A DNA stretch of 64,000 nucleotides from Candidatus Sulfomarinibacteraceae bacterium. GTDB lineage: Bacteria > Acidobacteriota > Thermoanaerobaculia > Thermoanaerobaculales > Sulfomarinibacteraceae. The notes beneath the pieces are model-generated. The model did no database searches. It was not told the DNA's origin and saw only the letters and a program-made list of their open reading frames with translations. Positions 43,963 to 60,658 of the stretch are shown one piece after another (positions within the stretch are counted from its first letter, which is position 1; the number at the start of each line of letters is the position of its first letter). The stretch covers positions 155,757-219,756 of the forward strand of contig CAWCLO010000005.1 of assembly GCA_963796455.1 (NCBI GenBank). Reading direction: 5' to 3'. The position numbers were made by a program, and so were the translations under genes.

Positions 43963-44646
43963 TTAGAAAATCCAACCGAAATCGAGCAGGAACACGTCGA
44001 AACGCGGCGTGCCGTCGGCGCCCGAAAAGTCCATCCACTGGCTGGTGTAACCGAAGCGCAGGAAGGTGTTGTCGCTGTCGAAGGTGTAGCGGAGACCGAG
44101 CGTTGCCTGATAGGAGAAGGCGTCGGTCGTCCTGGTCGGGTAGGTCGTGTAGCAGACGTAACCCCACCAAGGGTCCCACCAGCAACCGGTCGAGGGCAGT
44201 CCGTTGGGGATGTTGGTGTCGATCCATGTCCAGCCGATACCGGCGCCGACGTAGGGTGTGAGCTGATTTTCGGTGAAGTTGTAGACCAGGTTGCCCGACA
44301 GGGTGAACGCATCATAGCTGCCCCTGATGTCGAACTCGCTGCCATCCTCGTCCATTCCGGTCGCGTCGTACCCGATTCCCGACCATTGCAGACCGAAAGT
44401 GGTGGCGAGATGTTCATTGAAGTTGTAGCCGGCTCCCAGCGCAAAACCGAAATCGTCATTGGTGTCTACGAATGTTCCCTCTTTGGTGTCGATTTCGGCG
44501 CCAAGTTGGTAGAAGGTCCCAAGGCTGAACTCCCAGCGACCTTCCCGGTACTGGGCGTCGGCCGCGGGGGCAACGGCAAGAAACCCGATGGTCAAAGCGG
44601 CGACGGCGAGAATCGTGCCGGTACGTGATGTTTTCGAATGTGTCAT
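43963..44646 (-). CDS. Outer-membrane beta-barrel protein
   Basis: Signal peptide; LTPYVGAGIGW; CWWDPWWGYVC loop; terminal FGWIF. Confidence 0.85.
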   Translation of the reverse strand: MTHSKTSRTGTILAVAALTIGFLAVAPAADAQYREGRWEFSLGTFYQLGAEIDTKEGTFVDTNDDFGFALGAGYNFNEHLATTFGLQWSGIGYDATGMDEDGSEFDIRGSYDAFTLSGNLVYNFTENQLTPYVGAGIGWTWIDTNIPNGLPSTGCWWDPWWGYVCYTTYPTRTTDAFSYQATLGLRYTFDSDNTFLRFGYTSQWMDFSGADGTPRFDVFLLDFGWIF

Positions 44647-44802
44647 AAGTTCTCCATTTCCAAGTTGTTTTGTTGATAATGCATCTCTTTGACGATGCGG
44701 CCGGGGATCATAACATAAAGAGAAGAGGGCTCGCACCATGCCCTCAACTCCCTCTATCGGTATTGATTGTCTGCGGCGGAGATTTCTTCAGTGTCGAGGC
44801 GG

Positions 44803-45360
44803 CTAGAATTTCACCAAATACTTCTTCCCCTCGAGACATACGCTAAAAGCCTTCTTGAAGTTTTCGGTCTGCTCCGCCGTCGCCTGCTGGGCCTGCTGGT
44901 TCTGCTGCTCGACCTGCTGGCTGGCATCCTTCTTGACGCGCTTCGTCTTGCGGCGGGCGACGACCGCACCGGCGGCCGCGCCGTAGGCGGCGCCCCTGCC
45001 GGCATCGTCGCTGGCGATCTCTCCAATCAACGCACCCGCTGCGGCCCCACCCACGGCACCCTTCGCCCCGGCGCCCTGGCCGGCGGAGGCAATCTCCTGT
45101 TGCGCTTGCTGGGACTGCTGCTGCACCTGTTGGGCCTGTTTCTGCAAATCAAAGGGGTCGACGCCGGTGTTCTCGACCGCCCAGCTGTAACAGGTGGCCT
45201 CATCGACCGACTGTTGCTCGGGGGTCTGCCCCTCATTCGGAAAGACGTAGGTCTCGAGCGTTGCGGCGAGGGACTGCTGCGACGCCGGCTCGGTCTGTGC
45301 CACGGCGACTCCGGCGATCGCTGCGATCAAAGTAACTACAATCGTGATTCTGATGTTCAT
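44803..45360 (-). CDS. Exported glycine-zipper (YMGG-like) protein
   Basis: FPNEGQTPEQQSVDEATC; GAVGGAAAGALIG; FKKAFSVCLEGKKY. Confidence 0.85.
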   Translation of the reverse strand: MNIRITIVVTLIAAIAGVAVAQTEPASQQSLAATLETYVFPNEGQTPEQQSVDEATCYSWAVENTGVDPFDLQKQAQQVQQQSQQAQQEIASAGQGAGAKGAVGGAAAGALIGEIASDDAGRGAAYGAAAGAVVARRKTKRVKKDASQQVEQQNQQAQQATAEQTENFKKAFSVCLEGKKYLVKF

Positions 45361-45374
45361 GTTGTGTATTCCCT

Positions 45375-45812
45375 TCACTTATCGCCAGGCTCGGTGGTTT
45401 GTGCGATCGGCGTGCAGGCGCCGAAGACCGCTACCGCAACCCCCTCGAACGCGACGGCAACCGTGACCTGACCGGTCTGCTCGTTGATCACCCAGCTGAA
45501 TGCCCGGCCCATCTCGAAGCCTTGCAGGAAAATATCCCCATCCTCGCGGTTCACGTGCTTGATGGGGGTCACCCGGTTCTGGCCGCTCGCCTTGGTGGTG
45601 CTGAGTTGCTGCGCTTCGAGGTCGACCTCGACGAATGCCGGAACGTTGAGGTTGGCCGGCAGATCCACCAGGCATTCACCATCCTCGAAACAGATGGTGG
45701 CCTGAACAGAGGCGCACAGGAATCTATTCGAATCGCTGAGGTCGTCAGCCCACACTACCTGGCCCCCGAGAGCCAAAAGCACCGTCAGAACAAATCCACA
45801 AATCTTCTTCAT
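45375..45812 (-). CDS. Exported hypothetical protein with four Cys in the mature part
   Basis: Signal peptide; FLCAS...C...C...FGAC. Confidence 0.75.
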   Translation of the reverse strand: MKKICGFVLTVLLALGGQVVWADDLSDSNRFLCASVQATICFEDGECLVDLPANLNVPAFVEVDLEAQQLSTTKASGQNRVTPIKHVNREDGDIFLQGFEMGRAFSWVINEQTGQVTVAVAFEGVAVAVFGACTPIAQTTEPGDK

Positions 45813-45849
45813 TTTCTGTCTCCATTTCCAGCCGATCCGTAGACGAGCC

Positions 45850-46593
45850 TCAGAAACTGAAGGCCACAGCGAGCTGCGGCCCGGCGATCAGCATGTCGTA
45901 GCGGAAGAGGTCCCGCCCGCTCCCGTCCTCATAGTCCATGTCGATCGCGCGATAACCCAAGACAATTGAAACCACCTTCGAGGCGCGGAACCCGACATCG
46001 GCATAGGCCTGCCACGCCATCTCCGAACCGACGCCAAAGCCGCCGATGTCGCCACGGGCACCGAACCACCAACGCTGCGACAGCGGCGTCATGAGATGGA
46101 CGCCGACAAAGGGGTCGATCCAACTCTTACCCGTGCTGACGTCTTCGTCGAGGATCTCGCCCGTGTACCGGATGCGATTTTCGAGGTCCACCCAGCGCGC
46201 GCCCGCAAGGAGGGTGAAGGCGGGCGAGATGCGGTAGCCTCCTGCGACCTCGAAGAGGGTCTGCTGGACGGCCACTGTGGCAGTGCCCAGAGCGATGTCG
46301 TTACTCCCCTCGAGGTCCACGTAGAACAGGTCAGACATCAGCGCCCAGTGATCGTTCCTCATATCGAAGTGGGCCATGAGGGCAAGGTCCAGATTGTCGA
46401 TGATGTCGCTGAAGGGGACATCGACATCGGCCTCGATGCCCTTGACCGTAATCGAACCGTCCATCCCCGCCGCGACGAGGTACGGTGCAATCGAGAACTC
46501 CCAACCATCCGTCCCCGACTGGGCCTCCGCCTGCGGTACGGCCAGGGTCATGACGGTTGCGGCGAGGATCGCGAGCAGTATCTTATTCCTCAT
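45850..46593 (-). CDS. Outer-membrane beta-barrel protein
   Basis: Signal peptide; WEFSIAPY; WIDPFVG; GDIGGFGVGS; terminal AFSF. Confidence 0.85.
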   Translation of the reverse strand: MRNKILLAILAATVMTLAVPQAEAQSGTDGWEFSIAPYLVAAGMDGSITVKGIEADVDVPFSDIIDNLDLALMAHFDMRNDHWALMSDLFYVDLEGSNDIALGTATVAVQQTLFEVAGGYRISPAFTLLAGARWVDLENRIRYTGEILDEDVSTGKSWIDPFVGVHLMTPLSQRWWFGARGDIGGFGVGSEMAWQAYADVGFRASKVVSIVLGYRAIDMDYEDGSGRDLFRYDMLIAGPQLAVAFSF

Positions 46594-46613: not shown

Positions 46614-46658
46614 ACGATATCCGGAATCCCCGGTTTTCGAAACTCGCAAAATTACGGG
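46614..46658 (-). promoter_or_regulatory. Shared-motif promoter C
   Basis: CCCGTAATTTTGCGAGTTT-N20-TATCGT. Confidence 0.75.
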
Positions 46659-46721
46659 GTCAACGGCGGAGAATCACCACCTTCAGGTGCTGCGAGTCTC
46701 TCCCCCCTCCGCAATTCCAGG

Positions 46722-47720
46722 TCAGTCGAAGGCGACCGGATCCCACGAAGAGTCGGGGTTGTAGAGTTCCATGGCGCGAAACTGGTCAAGCGTGGCCTCT
46801 CCGAGATCCTGTTCGTAGACAACGCCGTTGTGGCTGACGATGAAGGTCTTGACGCCGGTCACACCGTAATCTACCGGGGCGGCGGCAAGCGCGAAACCAC
46901 CGATCATGGCGCCCATGACGACAAAGTCCGTCTCACCCAGCGGCGCGTCCGGGCCCTGGCCCTTGAGGACCTTGAAGTAGTAGCCGTGGTAGGGCTCGAA
47001 GCGTTCGGTGTAGCCCTCGGCGATGACCAGGGCAATCTCTTCACCCAAGGGCCCCTCCCAGGTACCGTCCGGGGCCCGCCACGCCAGACCATTCTGTTTG
47101 CCGGGAGTGCTGATGATGTGCTGCGCGTACTGGTTCACGAGGACATCGTCGTGCTTGACCAGGGCGTACTGGCGCTGCGCGTCGACGTAGTTCAGGCAGA
47201 CGTCGATGGCATCGAATTCGTTGCTCCCGACGCGGCGGTAGAGCAGTTCCTCACGGCCGGCCTCGGTGTCGAAGAACCAGCGCCCGCCCTCCTCGACGAT
47301 CGGCATCGGCACCGGCCAGTCCTCGGCTCCCACCGACAAAATGGCGACATGGGGGTCCAGGGGGACCCGGTCGACCTCGGTCTTGATACGCGCCTGCGCT
47401 GCAAACGCCAGGCTCTGATTGCGGTCTTGGACCGGGTCGCCCGTTTCCATCAGGTCGGCGCCGTCCGGCCCCAGGATCCGGGTCAAGGCCTCTACGTCGT
47501 ATGTTTCGGCCGCAACGATGAGGGCCTCGGCCGCATCTTCGGGGGTTGCGAAATCCATCTGGTTGACCGTCTGGGCCGCTCCGGAAGTCTCGCCGGAACC
47601 GGTCGCACACCCGGTGGCAAGCACGAGGGGCGTGGCCGCGATCACGAGACAGAGCCCGAGACGCGCGATGCGCGCGCGATGCTGCTGAACGAGATACTGG
47701 TTACCGTGTGTCAGGATCAT
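46722..47720 (-). CDS. DUF2950-family protein, probable lipoprotein
   Basis: LATGC; RRVGSNE; PYHGYYFKVL; YGVTGVKTFIV; YEQDLG. Confidence 0.88.
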   Translation of the reverse strand: MILTHGNQYLVQQHRARIARLGLCLVIAATPLVLATGCATGSGETSGAAQTVNQMDFATPEDAAEALIVAAETYDVEALTRILGPDGADLMETGDPVQDRNQSLAFAAQARIKTEVDRVPLDPHVAILSVGAEDWPVPMPIVEEGGRWFFDTEAGREELLYRRVGSNEFDAIDVCLNYVDAQRQYALVKHDDVLVNQYAQHIISTPGKQNGLAWRAPDGTWEGPLGEEIALVIAEGYTERFEPYHGYYFKVLKGQGPDAPLGETDFVVMGAMIGGFALAAAPVDYGVTGVKTFIVSHNGVVYEQDLGEATLDQFRAMELYNPDSSWDPVAFD

Positions 47721-47724
47721 CGCC

Positions 47725-48990
47725 TTACCTCCGCCGTCCGCCGCCGCCCCCGCCCCGGGATCCCATGCTGGAAGCGCCTCGCGAGCTTGCCGATCGGGCG
47801 CTCGATCCGCTGAAACCACTCGAACTGCCCCCGAAGCCGCTGGCACCCATTCCGCTGCTCGAGGGCATGCTGCGGTTTGCGGTGGCACCGGAGGACCCTC
47901 GGCTGGAAGCGCTCGGCGCTCGGTTGGCGGTTCCAGGGCTTGCCCCGCGGTTGGCGGTAGAGGGGCTTGCAGCCCTGTTTGAAGCTCCGGCGCTGCCCGC
48001 CCGATTGGAAGTCCCTGCGCTGGGTCCCCCCGCCCGATTCCCTGTTCCCCCTTGCTGGCGGGCGCTTGCCTGCCGGCTGCTCAACGAGTCACCGCGGGCC
48101 GATCCGCCGTACTTGTTCGCGGTCGCCTTGTCTGCATACGGGGTCCCACCACGGTGGTTGGCGTTGTGTTGCCAGTTTCCGCCGCCGGCGTTGATGTTGT
48201 TGTTCCTATTGAAATTGTTGTTGATGTTGATATTGACATTGTTGCTTCCCCAGCCACAGTGGCAACACGAACCGCCCCAGATTGCGGCGCCCCACATGAC
48301 CCCGACACTGAACGCGACGAAGGCCCCGCCGGGTGGGTAGGGGGGGTAGTAGATCGGAGGGTACGGGTAGACGGGCGGGCCGTAGACCACAGTCGGGCTG
48401 TAGGACGGCACGTAGATCACTTCAGGCTCCGCGGCCTCGACGATGATCACGGTTTTTTCCTCTACGATCTGGGTTTCGACCACCTGCTGTTCGTTGGATT
48501 CGAGGGCGCCGTTGTCCTGCGCCTTCTTCCGCATCCGTTGCACGGCATCCATGACGTCCTGCTGCTGCGCGAGAAAGGCGTTGCCGAGTTCCGTGGCCCA
48601 CTGGACGTCGTCGGCGAGACGCGTCACCACCTCGGGCACCGCCGCCATCGACTGGATGCTGGGATCCCAGGGCTGTTTCGCCACCGCCTCGGCCAGCGCG
48701 TCGCCCTCGAGCCCGGGGTTTTTATCGAGCCACTGTTGGAGCTGAATGATCTCGAGCGGGTAGGTCGAGGCGACCAGCACCTGCGCCAGTAGTGGGTCGG
48801 GATATAGAGCGATCGGGGCGACCAGCGAGTCGAGTTGATCGGCCGGGATGCCGACAGGGGCCGCATCAGCCGCGGCGGCCTCCTGCGCCCCCACGAACGA
48901 AGCACCGCTCATTTGAAGGATCACGGCCGCAATCGCGATCAATGCGACAGCCCTTCTTCTCGGTTGGGATGGAATGGTCGAAGCGCTCAT
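47725..48990 (-). CDS. DUF3300-family protein with Gly/Ser/Arg-rich tail
   Basis: QLDSLVAPIALYPDPLLAQVLVASTYP; WDPSIQS; IYVPSY. Confidence 0.9.
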   Translation of the reverse strand: MSASTIPSQPRRRAVALIAIAAVILQMSGASFVGAQEAAAADAAPVGIPADQLDSLVAPIALYPDPLLAQVLVASTYPLEIIQLQQWLDKNPGLEGDALAEAVAKQPWDPSIQSMAAVPEVVTRLADDVQWATELGNAFLAQQQDVMDAVQRMRKKAQDNGALESNEQQVVETQIVEEKTVIIVEAAEPEVIYVPSYSPTVVYGPPVYPYPPIYYPPYPPGGAFVAFSVGVMWGAAIWGGSCCHCGWGSNNVNININNNFNRNNNINAGGGNWQHNANHRGGTPYADKATANKYGGSARGDSLSSRQASARQQGGTGNRAGGPSAGTSNRAGSAGASNRAASPSTANRGASPGTANRAPSASSRGSSGATANRSMPSSSGMGASGFGGSSSGFSGSSARSASSRGASSMGSRGGGGGGRRR

Positions 48991-49074
48991 GTTGCATGCC
49001 CCCAATTCGCGCCGCTTCCGTCGGTCGGCATTCCCCTGGGAAGCACGCGTCAGATCTTTTTGATTGCCAATCAT

Positions 49075-49119
49075 ACGGTAGCTGCCGCGCGCCATCCTGG
49101 GAACTCGGAAAAATACGGG
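49075..49119 (-). promoter_or_regulatory. Shared-motif promoter B
   Basis: CCCGTATTTTTCCGAGTTC-N20-TACCGT. Confidence 0.75.
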
Positions 49120-49171
49120 GATGCTGCCCTCTCACCCAGCAATTTTCTCTCGAGGTCTCCTCGGGGGCAAG

Positions 49172-49216
49172 CCCGTAGTTTTCCGAGTTTACAGGCCATC
49201 GATTTCGAGCTACCGT
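49172..49216 (+). promoter_or_regulatory. Shared-motif promoter A
   Basis: CCCGTAGTTTTCCGAGTTT-N20-TACCGT (TTTACA-N17-TACCGT). Confidence 0.78.
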
Positions 49217-49309
49217 CCAGGTTAAGATCAGTCGACCCGGGAACCTGAAACGCGGAGTCCGTCAGCAGGAGGCACTCATGATCCGTCAATTCCACACAAG
49301 GCCACAGCC

Positions 49310-50410
49310 ATGAAATACGCCACCGACCATCGTCAGGGGTGGCTGCCCGCAACCGTTGCCTGCTGTCTCTTGGCCTGCGTCGGCTGCGCCAAAGAGGCAC
49401 CGCCGACACCGGAGCCGACGGTGCGGGCGGTCAGGTTGTTCGAGGTCGGATCGCAGGATCTGTTGTCGCAGCGGGAGTACCCCGGCCACATTACGGCCGC
49501 CACCGAAGCCCAGGTCAGCTTCGAGGTCCGCGGTCGCATCCTCGAGCTGCCGGTCGGCCAGGGCCAGCGGGTTCGCGAGGGCGACCTCCTGGCCCGGATC
49601 GATCCGAGCGACTACCAGGCGCAACTCGATGCCTCCATCGCCCAACGCAACGCCGCGCTTGCCGACTACGAGCGATTCGAGGAGCTGCTGGCAAAGGACG
49701 CCGTTTCGCAGCGCGACTTCGAGACCCGCAAGCGGAACTGGGAGGTGGCCGAGGCAAACCTGCGGATCGAAGAAAAGAACTTCGCCGACACCACGCTCCG
49801 CGCTCCTTTTACCGGGCGGGTCGCACGGACGTACGTCGAGCGCTTCCAGAACGTCAAGGCGCAGGAGACCGTCCTGCTGCTGCAGGACGACCAGCACCTC
49901 GAGATCGATGTCTCGATCCCCGAGGCCGCGCTGATGCAAATCGGTCGGTCGATCAACTTGCGTGCTCTGAACAGTCTGTTGAAACCGGTCGTCGCGATTT
50001 CGTCGCTGCCACCAGACACCACTTTCCCGGCTCGAATCAAGGAGCTCGCCACCGCGGCCGACCCGACGACCCGCACCTTCGAGGCCACGTTCGCCTTCGA
50101 CGCACCGTCCGAGGTCCTGATCCTCCCAGGGATGACGGCGCTGGTGAGGATGAGCGCCACCATTGACGAGCTCGGCGCCGGCATCGCCGTCCCGGCGAGT
50201 TCGAGCGTGATCGACGCCAACGGTGCCTCCTCGGTCTGGCGGGTGGACCGCGACACCATGCAGGTGCACCGTGTCGCCGTCGAACTCGGTGAGTTGTCCG
50301 GCGACTCGGTCGTGGTCGAGCGGGGGCTCGAGCCCGGCGATCTCATCGCCGCATCGGGAGCGAACCAGCTTCGCGAGGGCATGCAGGTCCGTTCGTCGGT
50401 GACGCCATGA
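49310..50410 (+). CDS. RND efflux periplasmic adaptor (MFP)
   Basis: Lipobox-like CVGC; VSFEVRGRI; LRAPFTG; LPGMT. Confidence 0.92.
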   Translation: MKYATDHRQGWLPATVACCLLACVGCAKEAPPTPEPTVRAVRLFEVGSQDLLSQREYPGHITAATEAQVSFEVRGRILELPVGQGQRVREGDLLARIDPSDYQAQLDASIAQRNAALADYERFEELLAKDAVSQRDFETRKRNWEVAEANLRIEEKNFADTTLRAPFTGRVARTYVERFQNVKAQETVLLLQDDQHLEIDVSIPEAALMQIGRSINLRALNSLLKPVVAISSLPPDTTFPARIKELATAADPTTRTFEATFAFDAPSEVLILPGMTALVRMSATIDELGAGIAVPASSSVIDANGASSVWRVDRDTMQVHRVAVELGELSGDSVVVERGLEPGDLIAASGANQLREGMQVRSSVTP

Positions 50411-50453
50411 GCCCCGCGTCGGACCCTCGTGACGGGAAAGGCGTGTTCGCACC

Positions 50454-53400
50454 ATGAAGCTCGCCGATAGCGCCATCGACAACAAGGTCTTCACTCTCGT
50501 CCTCACGGTCGTGATCCTCGGCGCCGGCGTGATGGCCTTCCAGGGCATGAGCCGCCTCGAGGACCCGGAGTTCACGATCAAGGACGCCCTCGTGGTGACG
50601 CCATACCCCGGCGCGACCGCCTTCGAGGTCGAGGAAGAGGTCAGCGACTCGATCGAGATCGCGGTGCAGAAGCTCGGCCAGCTCGACGAGATCGAATCGC
50701 GGTCGGTCCCCGGGCTCTCGACCGTGACCGTGACCATCAAGGACAAGTACGACAAGAGCACCCTGCCGCAGGTCTGGGACGAACTCCGGCGCAAGGTCAA
50801 CGACGCTCAGGGCGATCTTCCCCCCGGGGCCGGGCCGTCAATGGTGATCGACGACTTCGGCGACGTCTACGGCATCTTCTTCACGGTCTCGAGCGACGAC
50901 TACTCGTACGCCGAGCTCAAGGAAGTGGTTGACCTGCTGCGGCGCGAACTGCTGCTCGTTGAGGACGTCGCCAAGGTCGAGACCTTCGGCGAGCGGGTGG
51001 AAGCCGTCTACGTCGAGCTCGACCGCGACCGCATGTCCCAGCTCGGAATCTCGCCGGACATCATTGTCAACGAGCTGCGCGAGAAGAACCTGGTCGCCGA
51101 CGCCGGCCGCGTCCAGGTCGGCTCGGAGTTCATCGCCATCTATCCGACAGGTGAGTTCAACGACATCGCGGACTTCGAGGACATGTGGCTGAGCGGCGGC
51201 AGCGACCAGATCTACCTGCGCGACGTGGCGAAGGTCCGGCGCGCCTACCTCGAACCGCCGGCCAATCTCATCGTGCACGACGGCCGGCGATCGATCGGGG
51301 TCGGCATTTCGACCGCCTCGGGCGGCAACGTCGTGGTCATGGGCCAGGCCGTCGAGGAACGGATGCACGAGCTCTCTGGGCAGATACCGCTCGGCATCGA
51401 GATCGGCATCGTCTCCCTGCAGTCGGGCGCGGTGACCACGGCGATCGCCGGGTTCGTGACCAGCCTGTGGCAGGCGGTGTTGATCGTCATCGTGGTGCTG
51501 CTCTTCTTCATGGGCGTGCGCTCGGGGCTCCTGATCGGTTTCATCCTGGTGCTGACGATCATCGGCTCGTTCATCTTCCTGGCGCCGATGGGCGTGGCGC
51601 TCGAGCGCATTTCTCTCGGCGCCCTGATCATCGCCCTCGGGATGCTGGTCGACAACGCCATCGTGATCGTCGACGGCATGCTGGTCCGAATGCAGGCGGG
51701 CTCCAAACCTCGCGACGCCGCCACCGAGGTCGTCGCCCAGTCCGCGATGCCGCTGCTCGGTGCGACGCTCATCGCGATCCTGGCCTTCGCCGCCATCGGC
51801 ACCTCCCAGGACGCTACCGGCGAGTTCTGCCGCTCGCTCTTCCAGGTGGTCATGGTGTCGCTGCTCTTCAGCTGGGTCACGGCTGTGACCGTCACCCCCC
51901 TGTTCGGAATCATGTTCCTCAAACCGCCCGCAGGCGACCCCGGGGCCGACCCCTATGAGACCCCGTTCTACAAGAGATTCAAGGGTCTCCTGAAAGGATG
52001 CATACGCTACCGTTGGGTCACGGTCGTGGTGGTCCTCGTGCTCTTCGCGGGGTCGATGTGGGGATTCAAATTCATCGACCGCAGCTTCTTTCCTTCCGCG
52101 ACCCGGCCCCAGTTCACCGTCGACATGTGGTTGCCGTTGGGCACCGACATCAACGAGACCGGTGCCAGAGCCGCGGAGGCCGAAAGCCACATCCGGGGAC
52201 TCGACGGCGTCACCCACGTGACCTCGCTGATCGGTCAGGGCGGGCTGCGCTTTCTCCTGACCTACACGCCGGAAAAGCAGAGTGACTCCTACGCCCAGCT
52301 TCTGGTGGATGTCGACGACCCGGGGAAAATCGACGGGCTGATCGAGGGAATCGAGACCTACCTCACCGAGACCTATCCGAACCTGTTGGCCTACGGCGCC
52401 AAGTTCCAGCTCGGGCCCGGCAGCACCGGCAAGATCCAGGCGCGTTTCAGCGGCCCCGATCCCGATGTCCTGCGCGAGCTCGCCAGCGAGACGGTGGCCA
52501 TCTTCCAGGACCACCCCAACACCAAGGCAGTCAGGACCGACTGGCGAGAACGGACAAAGACCTTGCGACCGGTCCTGGCCGAACAGCGGGCAAACCTCGC
52601 CGGCGTCGGCCGAACGGATGTCGCGAATACCGTCCTGGAAGGATTCGAAGGCCGGACCGTCGGCCTCTACCGCGAAGGTGATCTTCTGCTGCCGGTCGTG
52701 CTGCGCGCCACGGAGGCCGAGCGGCAGAATGTCGAGAACATCAACCAGCTGCAGATCTGGAGCCCCAGCGCGCAACGCATGATTCCGCTGCGGCAGGTGG
52801 TCGAGAGTTTCGAGACTTCTTACGCCGACGAGATCGTGATTCGGCGAGACCGCAAACGCACGCTGACGGTGTACACCGATCCGATCACCGGCTCCTCCAC
52901 GGCCCTGTTCGGCGAGCTGCGGCCGCAGATCGAGGCGCTCGAACTGCCGTCCGGCTACACCCTCGAGTGGGGAGGCGAGTACGAGGACTCTGCGAAAGCA
53001 CAAGGTGCCCTCGTCGCCAGCCTGCCGATGTTCATCCTGATCATGGTGCTGGTGACCATCGCCCTGTTCAACTCGCTGCGCCAGTCGGCGGTCATCTGGC
53101 TCAACGTGCCGTTGGCGCTGATCGGAGTCACGGTCGGGTTGCTGGCCACCCACCAGCCGTTCGGATTCATGGCGCTGCTCGGTTTCCTGAGTCTCTCCGG
53201 CATGCTGATCAAGAACGGGGTGGTGCTGGTCGACGAGATCAACCTCCAGGGAAAGACCAAGGACACGTTCAGCGCCATCGTCGACTCGGCGGCTGGCCGC
53301 CTGCGGCCGGTCGCCATGGCGGCCTCGACCACCGCTCTCGGCATGATTCCCCTGCTCTTTGACGCCTTCTTCGTCTCGATGGCGATCACCATCATCGCCG

Positions 53401-53492
53401 GCCTCATATTCGGCACCGTCCTGACCATGTTCGTACTGCCGGTGCTCTACTCCATCTTCTACCGGGCCAAACCCACGGAGGTGTCGGGATGA
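50454..53492 (+). CDS. RND efflux permease (AcrB family)
   Basis: 1012 aa; GMLVDNAIV; GMLIKNGVVLVD; RLRPV. Confidence 0.95.
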   Translation: MKLADSAIDNKVFTLVLTVVILGAGVMAFQGMSRLEDPEFTIKDALVVTPYPGATAFEVEEEVSDSIEIAVQKLGQLDEIESRSVPGLSTVTVTIKDKYDKSTLPQVWDELRRKVNDAQGDLPPGAGPSMVIDDFGDVYGIFFTVSSDDYSYAELKEVVDLLRRELLLVEDVAKVETFGERVEAVYVELDRDRMSQLGISPDIIVNELREKNLVADAGRVQVGSEFIAIYPTGEFNDIADFEDMWLSGGSDQIYLRDVAKVRRAYLEPPANLIVHDGRRSIGVGISTASGGNVVVMGQAVEERMHELSGQIPLGIEIGIVSLQSGAVTTAIAGFVTSLWQAVLIVIVVLLFFMGVRSGLLIGFILVLTIIGSFIFLAPMGVALERISLGALIIALGMLVDNAIVIVDGMLVRMQAGSKPRDAATEVVAQSAMPLLGATLIAILAFAAIGTSQDATGEFCRSLFQVVMVSLLFSWVTAVTVTPLFGIMFLKPPAGDPGADPYETPFYKRFKGLLKGCIRYRWVTVVVVLVLFAGSMWGFKFIDRSFFPSATRPQFTVDMWLPLGTDINETGARAAEAESHIRGLDGVTHVTSLIGQGGLRFLLTYTPEKQSDSYAQLLVDVDDPGKIDGLIEGIETYLTETYPNLLAYGAKFQLGPGSTGKIQARFSGPDPDVLRELASETVAIFQDHPNTKAVRTDWRERTKTLRPVLAEQRANLAGVGRTDVANTVLEGFEGRTVGLYREGDLLLPVVLRATEAERQNVENINQLQIWSPSAQRMIPLRQVVESFETSYADEIVIRRDRKRTLTVYTDPITGSSTALFGELRPQIEALELPSGYTLEWGGEYEDSAKAQGALVASLPMFILIMVLVTIALFNSLRQSAVIWLNVPLALIGVTVGLLATHQPFGFMALLGFLSLSGMLIKNGVVLVDEINLQGKTKDTFSAIVDSAAGRLRPVAMAASTTALGMIPLLFDAFFVSMAITIIAGLIFGTVLTMFVLPVLYSIFYRAKPTEVSG

Positions 53493-54946
53493 GAAATTAC
53501 AAGGCATCCATCCTCCTGGTGTCGCTGGCGGCGGCGTTCCTGCCGGGGTGCACCACGGTGGGGCCCGATTACGAGGCCCCAGTCTCCACCGTCCCCGACG
53601 TCTGGTTCGAGACCGCGGTGGCGGGTGTGGCCGAAGGCGACGCGTCCCTGCAGACCTGGTGGACCCAGCTCGACGACCCGATGCTGTCGTCGCTGATCGA
53701 ACGGGCCGGGGCCTCGAACCTCGATCTGCGTGAGGCCGTCGCACGCATCAACGTTGCACGCGCCAATCTCGGCATTGTCTCGGGCGAGCGCCTGCCGCGG
53801 GTGGACGCCGCCGGTGACGCCTCGAGAAACCTCCTCAGCGACAACGGGGCCCTCGACCAGGTGGCACCCGCCGACGGCTTCGAGGCCCAGAATCTTTTCA
53901 ACCTCGGCATCGACGCCAGTTGGGAGATCGATGTATTCGGGCGGATCCGCCGTTCCACCGAATCGGCCCAGGCTTCCTACGAGGCATCCCTTGAAGACTA
54001 CCGCGACGTTCTGGTCACCCTGTTCGCCGAGGTGGCGAGAAGCTACATCGGCGTGCGCGAGACCCAGAAGCGGATCCAATTCGCCGAGACCAACGCCGCC
54101 GCCCAACGGTCCACCCTCCGGCTCACCCGGGATCGCCACGACGCGGGGGCAACCTCCGGCCTCGACGTGGTCCAGGCCGAATCGAATCTGCGCAACACCG
54201 AGGCCCAGATTCCCAGCCTGAAGATTCAGCTCAATATCTACCTCAACTCGTTGGCGGTCCTGCTCGGAGAGTACCCCGGCGCGCTCGACGAAGAGCTGGA
54301 GCCGGAAGCCCCAATGCCGCTGCCACCGGGCGAGCTCACCATTTCCATCCCTGCCGACCTGCTGCGCCAGAGGCCGGACATTCGCAGCCGCGAGCGGGCG
54401 CTGGCGGCCCAGACGGCGCGGATCGGCGTCGCCACGGCGGACCTCTACCCCCGCTTCTCACTCTCCGGGTTTTTCGCCGTCTCCGCCCGTGACGTCGGCG
54501 ATCTGTTTGACGGTGACAGCGTGACCTGGGGCATCTCGTTGCCCATCCGCTGGCAGATCTTCGACCGCGGCCGCATCCGCAGCGCCATCGATCTCGAGCA
54601 GGCGCGCACCGACCAGGCGCTGGTCGCTTACGAACGCACTGTGCTGCAGGCCTTTGCTGAGGTCGAGAACTCGCTCGTCGCCTACTCGCTCGAACGCACC
54701 CGCAGGGACTCGCTCGCTGCGGCCACCACCGCCACCCAGCGCGCGGTCGAACTGGTCTCGATCCAGTACCAGGAAGGCCTCGCCGACTTCCAGAACGTCC
54801 TCGACATGGAGCGTTCCCTGTCGACGCAGCAGGACCAGCTCGCGGTCAGCGAGGGCCAGATCCTGCAGGACCTGATCGCCCTCTACAAGGCGCTCGGCGG
54901 CGGCTGGGACCCGAATCAGGAGCAGGCGCCCGTACCAGAGAGCTGA
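53489..54946 (+). CDS. RND outer-membrane factor lipoprotein (NodT/OprM)
   Basis: LPGC-TTVGPDY; SWEIDVFG; LLRQRPDI; LYKALGGGW. Confidence 0.95.
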   Translation: MRNYKASILLVSLAAAFLPGCTTVGPDYEAPVSTVPDVWFETAVAGVAEGDASLQTWWTQLDDPMLSSLIERAGASNLDLREAVARINVARANLGIVSGERLPRVDAAGDASRNLLSDNGALDQVAPADGFEAQNLFNLGIDASWEIDVFGRIRRSTESAQASYEASLEDYRDVLVTLFAEVARSYIGVRETQKRIQFAETNAAAQRSTLRLTRDRHDAGATSGLDVVQAESNLRNTEAQIPSLKIQLNIYLNSLAVLLGEYPGALDEELEPEAPMPLPPGELTISIPADLLRQRPDIRSRERALAAQTARIGVATADLYPRFSLSGFFAVSARDVGDLFDGDSVTWGISLPIRWQIFDRGRIRSAIDLEQARTDQALVAYERTVLQAFAEVENSLVAYSLERTRRDSLAAATTATQRAVELVSIQYQEGLADFQNVLDMERSLSTQQDQLAVSEGQILQDLIALYKALGGGWDPNQEQAPVPES

Positions 54947-54961
54947 CGGGAAACGCGGGAT

Positions 54962-55271
54962 GTGAGGCTCGCGACGACACTCGTCGTCTGTCTGAGCGGC
55001 CTCGGCGTCATGTCGGCGGCGGCAGCGCAGAGTTTTGAGCTCACGCCGTTCGCGGGATGGCGGTTCGGTGGTGGGTTTCTCGGCCAGCGCCGCCGTCGGC
55101 CTGCTGTATCACGCCTCCGATCGGGTCGGCATCCGGCTCGAGGCCCGCGGGTGGTTTACTTTCACCGAAGCCGGAGGCACCGTCTTCTGCTCTGGCGGTT
55201 TCGTCATTGCATTCTCCGGCAGCGGACTTGGCCAGGGCGAGCTGACAGCCGGGCTGCAGCTGGGGATCTGA
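54962..55271 (+). pseudogene. Internally deleted paralogue of OM barrel 56638-57264
   Basis: FELTPFAG.RFGGG joined directly to FSASAAVGLLYHASDRVGIRLEARGWF; ~306 bp missing plus one extra base. Confidence 0.85.
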
Positions 55272-55337
55272 TCCTCTTCGAGTCCGTTACGGTTCTCCGC
55301 TGCCAACGGCACCTCTCGTACCGAATCCTCGAACAGC

Positions 55338-55382
55338 CTCGTAGTTTTCCGAGTTTGCAGTCCTTCGAATTCCGACTAACCT
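55338..55382 (+). promoter_or_regulatory. Shared-motif promoter D
   Basis: CTCGTAGTTTTCCGAGTTT-N20-TAACCT. Confidence 0.78.
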
Positions 55383-55450
55383 GGATATCTCACCGGTTTT
55401 GCGCCCGACGTGGTGATGATAGCGGGTTAAGGTCGGGGTCGTAGGAGGTT

Positions 55451-56602
55451 ATGGAGATCATGGAAACCAAGTACGCACCCGCCGAGCGGGCGCCCGAACT
55501 GGAAGTCATCAACCTGTTCGAGCTGCTTTCGGGTGTTCCGCTACTGGAAGAGATCCTGTGTTCGGTTCCTGATGTTCTGCTGTTTCTCAACGAACACCGG
55601 CAGATTGTCTTCGCCAATCGTGCGACCTTCTGTCTCCTGGGCATCGAACCGACGACCGACGTGCTCGGGAGTCGACCCGGTGAGGCCCTGGGTTGCCTCC
55701 ATGCAACGGAGACGGAAGGAGGTTGCGGCACGACCGAGTCCTGTCAGACCTGTGGTGCGGTGCAAGCGATCCTTGCCGCCCAGAAAGGCAGCGCAGACGT
55801 CAAAGAATGCCGCATGGCGGTCAAAGACTCCTTCGATGCCGTGGACATGAAGGTCTCGACGATGCCCTTCGAGTATGACGGTGAGCTCTTCACCATCTGT
55901 GCGTTGCAGGACATCAGCCACGAAAAGAGGCGGCAGGCGCTGGAGCGTACCTTCTTCCACGACGTCCTCAACACCGCCGGCGGGCTTCGAGGTTATACGG
56001 AGCTGCTCCTGGAGTCGGAGCCCGACGAACTTCCCGAGGTTGCGGCGACGGTCAACGAAATTTCTCAGCGCCTCATCGACGAGATCCAAAACCAGCGGTC
56101 GCTGATGGCCGCGGAGGCCGGCGAGCTGTCGCCGGCGTTGACCTCGATCCGGACGAAGGAGCTCCTCGAAGAGCTGGCGGTGGCCTACCGGCACCACGAG
56201 GTGGGCGAGGGCAAGATCATCACGGTTGACGCAGATTCCGACGACCTGACGCTTTGGTCGGACCGCACATTGCTCCTTCGGGTGCTGGGCAACATGGTGA
56301 AGAACGCCCTCGAGGCGTCGTCCGAGGCCGAGACGGTCAGCCTGGGCTCCAAGGTCCAGAGCGACGAGGTGCAGTTCTGGGTGAACAACTCGGCGGTCAT
56401 GCCGCGCGAGGTCCAGCTTCAGGTCTTCAAGCGCTCGTTCTCCACCAAGGGATCTGGGCGCGGCATCGGCACCTACAGCATCCGGCTCCTCGTCACGAGG
56501 TATCTCGGTGGTTCGGTAGATTTCGAGAGCTCGGAGGACGACGGCACGACCTTCCGGGTTCGCCTGCCGAGGGCAAACACAAGAAAAGGTGGTGCCGATT
56601 GA
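55451..56602 (+). CDS. Cytoplasmic sensor histidine kinase with Cys-rich PAS-like domain
   Basis: FFHDVLN H-box; NMVKNALE; FSTKGSGRGIG; CX9CX5CX2C. Confidence 0.88.
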   Translation: MEIMETKYAPAERAPELEVINLFELLSGVPLLEEILCSVPDVLLFLNEHRQIVFANRATFCLLGIEPTTDVLGSRPGEALGCLHATETEGGCGTTESCQTCGAVQAILAAQKGSADVKECRMAVKDSFDAVDMKVSTMPFEYDGELFTICALQDISHEKRRQALERTFFHDVLNTAGGLRGYTELLLESEPDELPEVAATVNEISQRLIDEIQNQRSLMAAEAGELSPALTSIRTKELLEELAVAYRHHEVGEGKIITVDADSDDLTLWSDRTLLLRVLGNMVKNALEASSEAETVSLGSKVQSDEVQFWVNNSAVMPREVQLQVFKRSFSTKGSGRGIGTYSIRLLVTRYLGGSVDFESSEDDGTTFRVRLPRANTRKGGAD

Positions 56603-56637
56603 AGCTTGATTGGAGCGCGAATGGCCAGAGAGCTTCC

Positions 56638-57264
56638 ATGACCGCGCGGACGACGTTCGTGACGACGATCGTCGGTTGCCTGCTCGCGGTGGGTGTCGCG
56701 TCGAGCGCCCAGGCGCAGAAATTCGAACTCACGCCGTTCGCCGGATATCGCTTCGGTGGCGGATTCTCGGAACTTGCCACCGGCGCGGATCTCGATATGG
56801 ACGACGGGCTCAGTTACGGCCTGATTTTCGGGATTCCGTGGAATGCACAGCATAGGTCGCGTCTCGAACTCATCTGGAGTTGGCAGGACACGACCGTTGG
56901 CGCCACGAGCACCGGAGATCCCGGCTTCGATCTCGACGTGCACTACCTCCACCTCAACGGCATGGTGCCTTTTGCCACGTCGAGCCCGAAACTTGACGTG
57001 CTGCTCTCGATCGGCGCGGGCGCCACCTTCATGTTGCCCGGCATTGACGGGGCAGGATCGGAGGCGCGCTTCTCGGTCAGCGGCGCGGTCGGCCTGCTGT
57101 ACCACGCCTCCGATCGGGTCGGCATCCGGCTCGAGGCCCGGGGTTGGTTCACCATCACCGAAGCAGGCGGCGCGGTTTTCTGCTCCGGTGGTTGCGTGGT
57201 CGCATTCTCCGGCAGTGGATTCGGCCAGGGCGAATTGACGGCGGGGTTGCAGGTTTCGTTCTAG
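56638..57264 (+). CDS. Outer-membrane beta-barrel protein
   Basis: Signal peptide; FELTPFAGYRFGG; terminal GLQVSF. Confidence 0.85.
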   Translation: MTARTTFVTTIVGCLLAVGVASSAQAQKFELTPFAGYRFGGGFSELATGADLDMDDGLSYGLIFGIPWNAQHRSRLELIWSWQDTTVGATSTGDPGFDLDVHYLHLNGMVPFATSSPKLDVLLSIGAGATFMLPGIDGAGSEARFSVSGAVGLLYHASDRVGIRLEARGWFTITEAGGAVFCSGGCVVAFSGSGFGQGELTAGLQVSF

Positions 57265-57275
57265 CCCGCAACTGC

Positions 57276-57725
57276 CTATGGCAGTTCTTCGAGATCCGCG
57301 AGGTCTTTTGCCCGAGCTGCGGCTTGCTTGTTGCGTTTGAGGTGGCGGAGTCCGATCAGCTTTACCATGACCCCGTCGAGTTCGTCCTCGACCCGTTGCT
57401 GATACGCATCGTCGAACTCGACGCCGTCGATCGAGGTCATGATCTCGATGCGCATCGGTGGAAGGCCCATGCGGATGATCTGATCGGCCGCGAGAAACAT
57501 CGCCTCGCTCAGCTTCTGCCCGCCAAAACCGAAATCTTCGAGTGCTGCCACGACTCGTCGAGCATTCTCCGGCGTCGAGGCGATCCATACGTCGATGTCC
57601 ATCGTTGCTCTGGGGTAACCGTGATAACCGACCGCATACCCGCCGACGAGGAGGTACTCAACGTTGTGGCGATGGAACCACTGAAAGAACTCTTTGAAGT
57701 CGGGTGGTAGATGGATCGTACCCAT
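57276..57725 (-). CDS. Stand-alone nucleotidyltransferase-fold protein
   Basis: EYLLVGGYAV..HGYPRATMDID; R.KDLADL. Confidence 0.82.
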   Translation of the reverse strand: MGTIHLPPDFKEFFQWFHRHNVEYLLVGGYAVGYHGYPRATMDIDVWIASTPENARRVVAALEDFGFGGQKLSEAMFLAADQIIRMGLPPMRIEIMTSIDGVEFDDAYQQRVEDELDGVMVKLIGLRHLKRNKQAAARAKDLADLEELP

Positions 57726-57870
57726 AGATAACCTGCCTCATCAGCTCGAGGGCGGCGAGCCTGTCGGTGGGTGTTTGCATCAGCCAAAAGGCGCGTTCGT
57801 TCGATTGATCGTGAAGGCCTGCGACCACCACAACAGAGCGTTCAAACTTCGCTGATTCAACGAGATTCAT
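57658..57870 (-). CDS. Small partner protein upstream of the nucleotidyltransferase
   Basis: 70 aa; AFWLMQTPTDRLAALELMR; overlaps the NTase 5' end. Confidence 0.65.
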   Translation of the reverse strand: MNLVESAKFERSVVVVAGLHDQSNERAFWLMQTPTDRLAALELMRQVIYGYDPSTTRLQRVLSVVPSPQR

Positions 57871-57998
57871 GGCTCGATCATACAATAGAGTAGATCTGCG
57901 ACCGTCAAGTGGTTGTCTGATTCTCATCGAGGGACCCACCCCGGTTCGCCGCGAACCCACGTCGGATCTTTCGTCTTCAGAGTTTCTCATCGCCGTTC

Positions 57999-58043
57999 CC
58001 CGTAGTTCTTCGAGGTTACAACCGTTCCGGCACCGGCTAACCT
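57999..58043 (+). promoter_or_regulatory. Shared-motif promoter E
   Basis: CCCGTAGTTCTTCGAGGTT-N20-TAACCT. Confidence 0.72.
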
Positions 58044-58095: not shown

Positions 58096-58647
58096 ATGAA
58101 AAGGTTCGGGCTCTCAATCACTCTCACCGCTCTGCTCGCCCTTCCGGCCGCCGCGGCCGACAACGGCTTTTATCTCGGTGCAAGCGTCGGTGAATCGGGC
58201 ATCAGGATCGATCAGGATTTCGAGGATATCGAATTCTCGGGAGGGGACACATCCTTCAAGGTGTTTGCCGGTTTCCGCTTCCTCACCTTCCTCGCCGTCG
58301 AGGGGAGCTACGTCGACCTCGGCGCGCCCAGCGAATTCGTCGAGGCCATCGATGGGACCATCGAGACCGACCTCACGGGATACGACGGGTTCGTGGTCGG
58401 GTACCTGCCCCTCGGCATCGCCGATATCTTCATCAAGGCCGGAGCCATTTCCTGGGACGCCAGGATTTCCGGGCAGATCGACGGCGTGCCCGAAAGCCAA
58501 TCCGACAGCGGGACCGACCCGGCATACGGCATCGGTTTCCAGTTCAGAATCAAATCCTTCGCGATTCGCGGCGAGTTCGAGTACTTCGACATCGATGGTG
58601 CCAAATACGTGTACATGTACTCGATCGGCGGCAGCTACACCTTCTGA
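58096..58647 (+). CDS. OmpA-like 8-strand outer-membrane beta-barrel
   Basis: ADNGFYLGASVG; KVFAGFRF; AVEGSYVDLG; terminal SYTF. Confidence 0.88.
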   Translation: MKRFGLSITLTALLALPAAAADNGFYLGASVGESGIRIDQDFEDIEFSGGDTSFKVFAGFRFLTFLAVEGSYVDLGAPSEFVEAIDGTIETDLTGYDGFVVGYLPLGIADIFIKAGAISWDARISGQIDGVPESQSDSGTDPAYGIGFQFRIKSFAIRGEFEYFDIDGAKYVYMYSIGGSYTF

Positions 58648-58688
58648 GACTGATCAACGACCCAGCGCAGCAACCAAAGGAGCCCACC

Positions 58689-59516
58689 ATGACGAGGCAG
58701 GAAGAAGAAACCGGGGCGGTCTCCCGCCGCAATATGCTCAAACAGTCAGCCGCTTTCCTGGTGGGCGGTGCTGCAGGTGGCGCCGCGGTCGCGTACGCGG
58801 AAACTCCCGCCGTAAACGACGTGCCCCCGGCCGCACCCCCCTTGCCCTGGAAATGGGTGACTCTCGACCCCCTCGAAGTGGGCAGAAGGGCCTACCGCAA
58901 CTACACAAAGGGCGGCTGCGGGTATGCGACCTATCAGGCCTTTCTCAGCATGCTGAAGGAGAAGGTCGGCTATCCCTACACGACGCTTCCGGACATGATG
59001 ATGATTCACGCCGGGTCCGGTTACGCCGGCCAGGGGACCCTGTGCGGCGCCCTCGGCGGCACCGCCCTGATCATCAACCTCGTGGTCTACGACGGCAAGA
59101 GCAGTGTTTACAAGGAAATGATCGACCGCCTGTTCTGGTGGTACGCGGAACAGAATTTCCCGACCGATCGCTTTGACGATATCTCCACAATGCCCGGGCA
59201 GATCCAGGTCAAGACGATGTCGCCGCTATGCCACACCTCGGTGTCAAAGTGGACCCTGGCCGCCGGCGCCGAGGTGAGCTCCAAGGCGAAGGTCGAGCGC
59301 TGCTCCAAGGTGGCGGGCGAAGTCGCCTACATGGCGACCCTCGCGCTCAACGAGTACTTCGCCGGCAAGTGGACCCCGCCGGTGTGGAAACCGTCGGAGG
59401 AAATCAAGCACTGCATCAGCTGCCATGGCCCGGACAAAATGGAGCACACCGACGGCCCCAACAACCAACAGGGCCACATGGAGTGCCTGATGTGCCACGG
59501 CGATCACACACTTTGA
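58689..59516 (+). CDS. Tat-signal C-GCAxxG-C-C family protein with two C-terminal CxxCH (split-Soret cytochrome c-like)
   Basis: SRRNMLK; GGCGYA; GTLCGALGG; PLCHTS; ERCSK; CISCH; CLMCH. Confidence 0.82.
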   Translation: MTRQEEETGAVSRRNMLKQSAAFLVGGAAGGAAVAYAETPAVNDVPPAAPPLPWKWVTLDPLEVGRRAYRNYTKGGCGYATYQAFLSMLKEKVGYPYTTLPDMMMIHAGSGYAGQGTLCGALGGTALIINLVVYDGKSSVYKEMIDRLFWWYAEQNFPTDRFDDISTMPGQIQVKTMSPLCHTSVSKWTLAAGAEVSSKAKVERCSKVAGEVAYMATLALNEYFAGKWTPPVWKPSEEIKHCISCHGPDKMEHTDGPNNQQGHMECLMCHGDHTL

Positions 59517-59539: not shown

Positions 59540-60658
59540 TCACTCGCGTACCTGTTTGGCCTCAGCTAGCCGATAACTGGTACTTCGACCCCCACCCGGG
59601 TTCTTCACAATGATGCCTCGTTCGAGCAGCGTCTGAATATCTCGAAGCGCAGTGTCGTTTGAGCACTCCGCAAGATTTGCGTACTTCGATGTCGTCAGGT
59701 GCCCCTTGAAGTCGTCGAGCATGCGGCTGATGACCTTTCGCTGGCGCTCGTTGAGCGGGTTCTGGTTGATCCGTTGCCAGAGGCTCGCCTTGTAGAGCAC
59801 CGACGACAGCGCCTTGTCCGCGCCTTCGATGGTGCGGTCGAGACAGGCGAGGAACCACGCAAGCCATGCGGTGACATCGAGGGATCCGCGCTGAGCGGAT
59901 TCGAGCTGGAGGTAATATTCCCTCCTCTCTGCCTCGATAACCGACGACATGCTGTAGAAGCGTTCCTTCGTGCCATCTGCCTGCGAGAGTGCCATTTCAG
60001 CGATGGCACGAGCGATGCGCCCGTTTCCATCCTCGAACGGGTGAAGGGTCACAAACCAGAGGTGTGCGACGCCGGCCTTGAGCACCGGGTCAAGCGACGG
60101 AGGCCTGTTGAACCACGTGAGGAAGGACTCCATTTCGCTCTCGAGGCGTTCTGCCGGAGGCGCCTCGAAATGAACTCTCTCCTTGCCGATAGGCCCGGAA
60201 ACGACCTGCATCGGACCCGCTTCACCGGTTCGCCACGTACCAACCGTGATTCGCCCCATCCCGCTGCGGCCGGTAGGAAAGAGCGCGGCATGCCAATCAA
60301 AGAGGCGTTCCGCTGTGAGTGGCGCGTCGTAGTTCCTCGCCGCATCGAGCATCATCTCGACGATCCCGTCGACTTCCCGGCCCGGCTTGGGAAGGCCCGC
60401 AATATCGAGCCCGAGCTTGCGAGCGATTGATGAGCGAACCTCGTCAGGGTTGAGGCTCTGTCCCTCGATGGCGGAGGTAGTCACCACTTCGTCAGTGAGC
60501 GAGGTGAGACTCGCTTCGGTCCGGAAGTCGAACCCGAGAGCCTCCATCTTGCCGAGGTGCCTGCCCTGCTTGTGGCGCACCGCCGCCAGCGCCCCCGACA
60601 GGGCTTCACTGTCCCACTTGAAATCCGGCCATCCGGGCCGCTGGTAGATATAAGTCAT
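59540..60658 (-). CDS. Fic-family protein with DUF4172-like N-terminus and C-terminal HTH
   Basis: YIYQRPGWPDFKWD; HPFEDGNGRIAR; DTALRDI...GGGRSTSY. Confidence 0.92.
   Translation of the reverse strand: MTYIYQRPGWPDFKWDSEALSGALAAVRHKQGRHLGKMEALGFDFRTEASLTSLTDEVVTTSAIEGQSLNPDEVRSSIARKLGLDIAGLPKPGREVDGIVEMMLDAARNYDAPLTAERLFDWHAALFPTGRSGMGRITVGTWRTGEAGPMQVVSGPIGKERVHFEAPPAERLESEMESFLTWFNRPPSLDPVLKAGVAHLWFVTLHPFEDGNGRIARAIAEMALSQADGTKERFYSMSSVIEAERREYYLQLESAQRGSLDVTAWLAWFLACLDRTIEGADKALSSVLYKASLWQRINQNPLNERQRKVISRMLDDFKGHLTTSKYANLAECSNDTALRDIQTLLERGIIVKNPGGGRSTSYRLAEAKQVRE

Follow-up and report, generated by a model that had tools for sequence, protein, structure and literature searches.

A 16-bp palindrome at five predicted promoters of a Sulfomarinibacteraceae gene island and its candidate response regulator

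Introduction

The closest described counterpart of the promoters considered here is that of Escherichia coli yeaR where, in the portion of the report drawn on, a single NarL dimer occupies 16 bp lying just ahead of the -35 box, centred at -43.5, and recruits RNA polymerase through the C-terminal domain of its alpha subunit, alphaCTD (PMC10853779). We describe a similarly placed element, an imperfect 16-bp palindrome that precedes five predicted promoters in a 64,000-nucleotide stretch of DNA (the window; assembly GCA_963796455.1, contig CAWCLO010000005.1, positions 155,757 to 219,756 of the forward strand) from a Candidatus Sulfomarinibacteraceae bacterium, a member of a group described, in the part of the source cited, from marine sediments (PMC8528874). 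The five elements are very probably binding sites for a single NarL/FixJ-family response regulator, belonging to a clade with the recognition helix RTVEFHKY, which as a phosphorylated dimer would activate the genes of an island from them. Coordinates are those of the window unless a contig (C) or locus (L) is named; G000 is the genome assembly that holds the window (5.02 Mb, 90.5% complete), and other genomes carry other G numbers.

The likeness to NarL at yeaR, as far as the cited part of that report describes it, includes a regulator built of receiver (REC) and GerE domains and, by prediction for the present promoters, a single 16-bp dyad just ahead of the -35 box, centred at -43.5, the arrangement of non-canonical class II activation. 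The two systems differ in that the NarL site has a 7-2-7 layout (TAACCAATAAATGGTA at yeaR), whereas the present element is 6-4-6 with inward GTA...TAC. The base-contacting residues K188, V189 and K192 of NarL align to E, F and Y in the clade regulator, and in a sister clade that lacks the motif the first of these positions is occupied by A; this E versus A difference between motif-linked and motif-free clades offers a ready test of the recognition code. The clade regulator scores 124 bits, far below the NarL cut-off of 250.

Rhizobial FixJ, in the sections of the source used here, recognises TAAGTAATTTCCCTTA, an imperfect palindrome of 16 bp that shares the GTA and an A/T-rich core with ours, and the class I sequence obtained for FixJ by systematic evolution of ligands by exponential enrichment, GTAGTTTCCC, agrees in 9/10 bases with the sites at 49172 and 55338 of the window (PMC4999443). 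The outer triplets, however, are TAA/TTA for FixJ and CTC/GAG here, the clade regulator reaches 112 bits against a FixJ cut-off of 255, the kinase is of the HisKA_3 type and not FixL, and the targets differ. Identity with the FixJ regulon was rejected, neither a TAAGTA-N4-CCCTTA-like site nor a FixL partner having been found; the core is shared, but the outer bases and the kinase class are not.

Other resemblances are more distant. The ComA box of Bacillus subtilis is likewise a 6-4-6 inverted repeat bound by a homodimeric activator with a tetrahelical helix-turn-helix (HTH), but its half-site is TTGCGG rather than CTCGTA and, in the part of the report cited, ComA sites lie upstream with extra direct repeats (PMC4797271). 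The best sequence matches of the clade regulator are SsrB/EsrB, MctR and UvrY/GacA, all under curated cut-offs (165 versus 242 for the SsrB-type PRK15369; 157 versus 300 for MctR), and SsrB is described, in the source as cited, as binding a degenerate A+T-rich 18-bp palindrome (PMC5562331). The box of methanoarchaeal MsvR, TTCGTAN4TACGAA, has the inner 14 bp TCGTA-N4-TACGA in common with ours; its outer base differs, and the cited portion of that report presents an archaeal regulator unique to methanoarchaea, with no bacterial -35/-10 context (PMC3729527). This resemblance is most likely a coincidence.

What appears to be new is the DNA specificity and target set predicted for an apparently unstudied, cross-phylum regulator clade, whose members come mostly from uncultured bacteria of soil and sediment; the activation mechanism itself would be textbook. 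No earlier description of the motif with this regulator was found in the open-access literature on the motif, on DUF3300/DUF2950, on NarL regulons of Acidobacteriota or on regulation in Sulfomarinibacter, regulon databases lying outside that search.

Results and Discussion

Geometry of the five sites

The five sites, each given by its palindrome, are as follows.

Site 1: 46643-46658, minus strand; -35 box 46637-46642, -10 box 46614-46619; promoter of a barrel operon; orthologous sites in G006, G008, G012, G014, G020 and G062.
Site 2: 49104-49119, minus strand; -35 box 49098-49103, -10 box 49075-49080; DUF3300-DUF2950 promoter; orthologous sites in G006, G008, G020, G062 and G094.
Site 3: 49172-49187, plus strand; -35 box 49188-49193, -10 box 49211-49216; divergent promoter of an RND pump; orthologous site in G006.
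Site 4: 55338-55353, plus strand; -35 box 55354-55359, -10 box 55377-55382; promoter of a Cys-rich kinase and a barrel gene; orthologous sites in G006 and G020.
Site 5: 57999-58014, plus strand; -35 box 58015-58020, -10 box 58038-58043; promoter of a barrel gene and a split-Soret-like gene; orthologous sites in G016, G062 and G094.

An earlier reading of the letters alone (the sequence-only reading) had noticed five 19-mers, each pointing toward a gene and followed by a hexamer. Their coordinates, strands and orientation were confirmed, the gap being exactly 20 nucleotides (nt) in all five. Its description of a 19-bp motif did not survive: the dyad symmetry had been missed, and the element consists of the first 16 bases of the 19-mer, with the ideal form CTCGTA-N4-TACGAG. 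Bases 17-22, outside the palindrome, form a sigma70-type -35 box (TTTACA, TTCCCA, TTTGCA, TTTCGA and GTTACA in the five sites) which the last base of the palindrome abuts, and at 5/5 sites 17 bp separate this box from a -10 box of the form TAnnnT. The palindrome thus stands at a fixed spacing from both predicted promoter elements, and its dyad would be centred at -43.5 if the -10 box is taken to occupy -12 to -7.

With up to two mismatches to the pattern CYCGTANTTYTNCGAG allowed, the window holds six matches (five of them exact) against 1.08 expected, and none of 100 shuffles reaches six, a significance that is overstated since the pattern was built from these same five sites. A matrix scan of the kind proposed in the sequence-only reading was run across G000, and there the five sites stand clear of all else: by position weight matrix they are the top five, at 36-44 bits, the next match scoring ~24 bits, and under a broader matrix they score 27-36 bits, the next reaching 15.8. 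They are the only strong copies in G000. Look-alikes of the motif alone occur elsewhere in that genome without a -10 box at the proper offset. The two examined are coding DNA, one at C4:1228955 and the other inside an opposite-strand open reading frame (ORF) at C5:150833; the latter, an extra exact match, was rejected as a site, being coding and having no -10 box.

The 20-nt stretches had been called mostly dissimilar, which is right for nine pairs of spacers, identical at 5-8 of 17 bases, and wrong for the tenth: 49172 and 55338 agree at 11/17. Because these two promoters are probably paralogous, the five sites are not fully independent. The claim that all sites are intergenic also needs qualifying, in that 55338 falls within a listed ORF of 160 aa. 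That ORF, however, reads through an internally deleted copy of a barrel gene, and since the C-terminal frame of the copy stops at 55271, the site is effectively intergenic.

Conservation and distribution

Among 40 orthologous promoter pairs, the palindrome arms differ at 44/480 positions (9%), compared with 11% in the central four bases, 17% in the -35 box, 36% in the spacer and 66% in the 30 nt upstream. Upstream regions of DUF3300 in other genomes, where a search had been suggested, do hold orthologous sites (those listed under site 2). The motif had been seen as belonging to this island, but the palindrome extends beyond it, to the genus and to other phyla. A broader pattern is present in 11/61 relatives, all of them within the genus (11/25 genus genomes), with no matches for the reversed control, and a strict pattern picks out 85 stretches in GTDB, from Acidobacteriota, Gammaproteobacteria, Nitrospiraceae, Desulfobulbaceae, Planctomycetota and others. 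In loci with a GC content of 50% or more, the position left free in this GTDB pattern is A in 51/85 site sequences, and it is on this account that the ideal palindrome was completed as CTCGTA-N4-TACGAG. The low-GC matches, a minority, which are single and mostly without the regulator, are probably due to chance.

In three Bacteroidaceae records (L116, L131 and L150) the same 218-aa gene is preceded, at a distance of 146 nt, by a perfect CTCGTA-CTTT-TACGAG whose downstream spacing also matches. The clade regulator was not found in the two of these three genomes that were searched, and the copies, whether products of chance in an ancestor or sites for a different regulator, are unexplained.

The homology of orthologous promoters often ends 0-2 nt from the 5' edge of the site, and among contigs from four sequencing runs, which showed only DNA of relatives, two start exactly at 49172, and in one the kinase cassette is joined at 55334 to the rear of the split-Soret gene. 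Both observations would suit a palindrome that serves as a recombination or cassette-boundary site, shuffling promoter-gene units, with the promoter link secondary. We consider this improbable. The fixed -35/-10 spacing and the gene-ward orientation call for no recombinase, and none is found among the Pfam matches of the island; a sharp edge is, moreover, expected wherever constraint ends, and other pairs keep homology for 26-150 nt upstream.

A clade of response regulators linked to the site

Which protein might read the palindrome? A hidden Markov model (HMM) search of site-bearing loci returned a recurrent REC and GerE regulator with the recognition helix RTVEFHKY, its gene ending a few hundred bases from the site. 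PF00072 and PF00196 are above cut-off in the proteins of relatives, and D13, D14, D57 and K107 are invariant across 14 aligned clade regulators, each comprising a receiver with a phospho-Asp and a C-terminal GerE HTH. Two clade members were scanned, and both fall under every listed NCBIfam equivalog cut-off (NarL, NarP, FixJ, SsrB, UvrY, EvgA, RcsB, MctR and MadR).

Site and regulator are neighbours in many genomes. Six genus genomes carry the clade regulator, in one case frameshifted, and each has a site no more than 10 kb away from it; in G062 and G094 the kinase-regulator pair shares a contig with orthologues of the window's island, at a distance of 17-27 kb. A plasmid of Rhizobium leguminosarum ATCC 14479 (L324:27990, NZ_CP030763.1) carries a trio of kinase, regulator (WP_112908158.1, 63% identical) and second receiver, and a site with an imperfect -10 box lies ~12 kb from the regulator, upstream of DUF2092; this copy in a cultured strain makes the system testable.

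An independent test was provided by 80 metagenome loci that were selected by protein alone and in which no training site occurs verbatim. Sites are present in 26/43 loci with RTVE[FD]HKY, in 0/11 of the TVAFHKY sister loci and in 6/26 others, with none in 377 kb of shuffled sequence; within 400 nt downstream of the regulator, the corresponding counts are 20/39, 0/11 and 4/15. The same loci hold 45 matches to the 16-mer alone, a few of which may come from matching a single palindrome on each of its strands. Although the -10 box was not part of that search, TAnnnT stands at the expected offset in 15 of the 45, one base further in 4 and at any other offset in at most 2, and the individual counts at the expected offset are T 24, A 29 and T 27.

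These counts bear on a further possibility, that the element marks promoters recognised by an alternative sigma factor of the extracytoplasmic function (ECF) type, no activator being involved. CGT-containing -10 boxes are typical of ECF promoters, and CGT ends three of the five -10 boxes here. Across lineages, however, only the T, A and T of TAnnnT are conserved and the middle varies, while the element itself is a dyad upstream of the -35 box that co-occurs with a response regulator and often lies directly behind its gene. We therefore think an ECF promoter very unlikely.

At the level of sequence, then, the sites, their geometry, their conservation and, in other genomes, their linkage to the regulator clade and to a HisKA_3 kinase are established. 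The earlier suggestion of one activator, not encoded in the window, at class-II-like sigma70 promoters fits both the footprint and the co-occurrence with a single response-regulator clade. A second type of candidate, the RTVENHRANL-type NarL regulators of the G001 and G005 islands, was rejected; their loci have no site, and they are present in many motif-free genomes.

Partner kinase, receiver-only protein and proposed mechanism

A kinase with an ELHD H-box and a HisKA_3 domain is encoded directly upstream of the candidate regulator in 12/12 loci checked, and PF07730 is above cut-off in all six partner kinases scanned. Their sensors vary between lineages, being GAF-PAS-PAS in the genus and MASE3, PAS and others elsewhere. 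The 141 sites most often have as their target a receiver-only protein of ~130 aa (20 in the cluster, one of them doubtful) encoded just behind the regulator, in which the phospho-Asp position is kept and the second pocket Asp is mostly Arg. The other targets (41/64 cluster representatives were scanned) are mainly envelope or secreted proteins and sulfatases, with a scattering of genes for anaerobic metabolism, among them pyruvate formate-lyase, DcuA/B, serine dehydratase and PPK2; the set hints at a low-oxygen or stress programme.

We propose that the HisKA_3 kinase would phosphorylate the RTVEFHKY regulator, whose dimer would bind at about -43.5 with one protomer on each CTCGTA half-site. By analogy with NarL at yeaR, the bound dimer would recruit RNA polymerase at the weak sigma70-type promoters, and the envelope, efflux and signalling genes of the island would thereby be activated. 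The regulator would also switch on its receiver-only paralogue, which might damp the response; negative feedback by this protein is a guess.

Weighing the assignment

Some further support for the assignment comes with qualifications, and several points, set out in this paragraph and the next, weigh against it. The invariance of T, A and T of the -10 box in the footprint is partly circular, the sites having been chosen with TAnnnT. For 50 genomes picked by the motif (nine of 59 chosen GTDB loci were omitted, mostly low-GC or duplicate taxa), a wider-family regulator is present in 20/23 with at least two sites (two split) versus 6/27 with one, in favour of the link, but 12 of the 50 supplied rows of the search model, which makes the comparison partly circular, kinship robs the genomes of independence, and for four of the 20 the best match belongs to sister subclades. 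In the phylum, an even sample of 300 genomes contains 17 with a wider-family regulator, of which 16, including four rows of the 30-row clade, are without a strict-pattern site; in favour of the link, G353, the only one of the 300 with several sites, has the top-scoring regulator and a site just behind it. Of the 43 clade metagenome loci, 17, many of them short contigs, have no site. A 78-row tree supports the assignment: 14 of the 15 regulators with a strong adjacent site (no more than 1.5 kb away) are flagged on it and, where scatter would be expected without a link, every one of them belongs to a single 30-row clade (Shimodaira-Hasegawa-like approximate likelihood ratio test, SH-aLRT, 96), with none among the other 48 rows. 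The tree is a quick IQ-TREE result without bootstrap, however, and the two-by-two association within the genus is weak when taken alone (6/5 versus 2/12, P=0.08).

The clade regulator was, furthermore, not found in G000 by tblastn, blastn or six-frame HMM search, and neither the receiver-only gene nor the output half of the partner kinase was found there; G000 keeps only the sensor half of that kinase, fused to a sigma54 activator on C10. Motif-bearing G005, G006, G012 and G020 likewise yielded no regulator. It is present in 6/11 motif-bearing genus genomes, leaving 5/11 without it versus 1.3 predicted from marker completeness (P ~0.005, assuming losses random and independent), and two of the five are 95% complete.

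Such absences are what would be expected if the regulator has been correctly assigned but the island of G000 is an orphan, acquired or kept without the kinase-regulator module, with promoters that are basal or silent. Decay and shuffling of the island, seen in the pseudogene at 54962 and in the differing genes opposite the DUF3300 promoter among relatives, point the same way, and we give this explanation considerable weight, somewhat short of an even chance. It is opposed by the conservation of the sites among the regulator-less genomes, in which the arms show 8/120 differences (7%) versus 37/170 (22%) for the spacers, and by the tenth of G000 that is missing. The regulator lies within 20 kb of a contig end in 5/6 genus genomes that have it and would for this reason be easily lost from assemblies. 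We slightly favour a G000 regulator encoded in the unassembled tenth of the genome over one that is truly lost.

A broader and more doubtful proposal is that kinase, regulator, site and receiver-only feedback gene form a portable module whose DNA code has stayed the same in Acidobacteriota, Gammaproteobacteria, Nitrospirota, Desulfobacterota, Planctomycetota and on a Rhizobium plasmid, even as its sensor domains and operator-led target cassettes were exchanged. Target islands might then also travel or persist without the regulator, like that of the window, as pre-wired orphan regulons ready for the module to be reacquired.

G000 also holds a second island (L325-L326, C10:756000-795368) with similar cargo, namely DUF2092, sulfatases, DUF4136, MscS and barrels. 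Of the two PAS-sigma54 activators encoded there, one has a sensor half that shares 44% identity with that of the clade kinase, and the island has two sigma54-like boxes; no palindrome was found in it at a 9-bit threshold. G005 and G006, also without the regulator, have a similar sensor-half match, and one type of sensor may serve either output.

The kinase at 55451 and other possible readers of the sites

It had been suggested that the activator might be the partner of the kinase at 55451. This kinase is rare (6/61 relatives), 8/11 motif-bearing genomes have no match to it as query, and its H-box, FFHDVLN, is of another class than those of the ELHD/HisKA_3 partner kinases; it is a putative target and probably not the activator's partner.

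Some other protein of G000 might still read the sites, be it the partner of this kinase, a MalT-like LuxR protein (L327, C5:8156-12214) or a small core LuxR protein. The 55451 kinase does occur in 3/5 regulator-less motif genomes and in 0/6 with the regulator, and G000 has six GerE-domain matches. We nevertheless regard such a reader as unlikely: no regulator gene adjoins the kinase in the window, G018 has a kinase of this type and no site, the recognition helices of the G000 LuxR proteins are unlike that of the clade, and no site lies near the MalT-like gene, which stands upstream of outer-membrane protein genes.

The sensor region of the 55451 kinase (gene 55451-56602) contains five near-invariant Cys (in 116-119 of 120 homologues) and a His, spaced C-x-H-x7-C-x5-C-x2-C-x18-C, and may be a redox sensor with a bound Fe-S cluster or zinc. 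Homologues number 4493 among 8000 scored candidates, and in the open-access literature on Cys-PAS kinases nothing was found that matches this sensor.

Genes of the island

The predicted targets of the five sites, and a pseudogene among them, are given below.

43963-46593, minus strand: predicted operon of site 1, with a signal-peptide protein (45850-46593), a 145-aa protein, a glycine-zipper protein and an outer-membrane beta-barrel (likely start 44646).
46722-48990, minus strand: predicted targets of site 2, DUF3300 (likely start 48990) and DUF2950 (Pfam PF11737 and PF11453).
49310-54946, plus strand: predicted targets of site 3, RND adaptor, AcrB-family permease and outer-membrane factor.
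54962-55271, plus strand: barrel pseudogene, an internally deleted, frameshifted copy of the 56638-57264 gene, upstream of site 4.
55451-57264, plus strand: predicted targets of site 4, the histidine kinase (55451-56602), whose N-terminal sensor region contains five near-invariant Cys, and, at 56638-57264, a barrel gene.
58096-59516, plus strand: predicted targets of site 5, an outer-membrane beta-barrel (58096-58647) and a C_GCAxxG_C_C split-Soret-like protein (58689-59516).

The last pair had been read as a barrel with a diheme protein. The barrel stands, but the supposed diheme protein is a C_GCAxxG_C_C protein that resembles split-Soret cytochrome c with a score under the NCBIfam cut-off. 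The DUF3300-DUF2950 pair is marked as uncharacterised, yet induced in rhizobia, in the part of the source cited (PMC4653623), and the present site offers a first regulatory handle on it.

The slot opposite the DUF3300 promoter (49119-49172 and its orthologues) holds differing site-led cassettes among relatives: the RND pump in G000 and G006, a kinase in G020, a barrel in G062 and a 171-aa protein in G008. A nucleotidyltransferase-like gene of the DUF6036 type, inserted in the island on the minus strand at 57276-57725, is preceded by a small ORF (57658-57900); the two are possibly a toxin-antitoxin-like pair, of which the islands of G006, G016 and G062 have close copies. The 607-aa ORF at 60678-62501 has no match in Pfam or NCBIfam, and at the right edge of the island (59540-60658) lies the gene of a Fic/DOC-family protein with DUF4172 and a C-terminal HTH.

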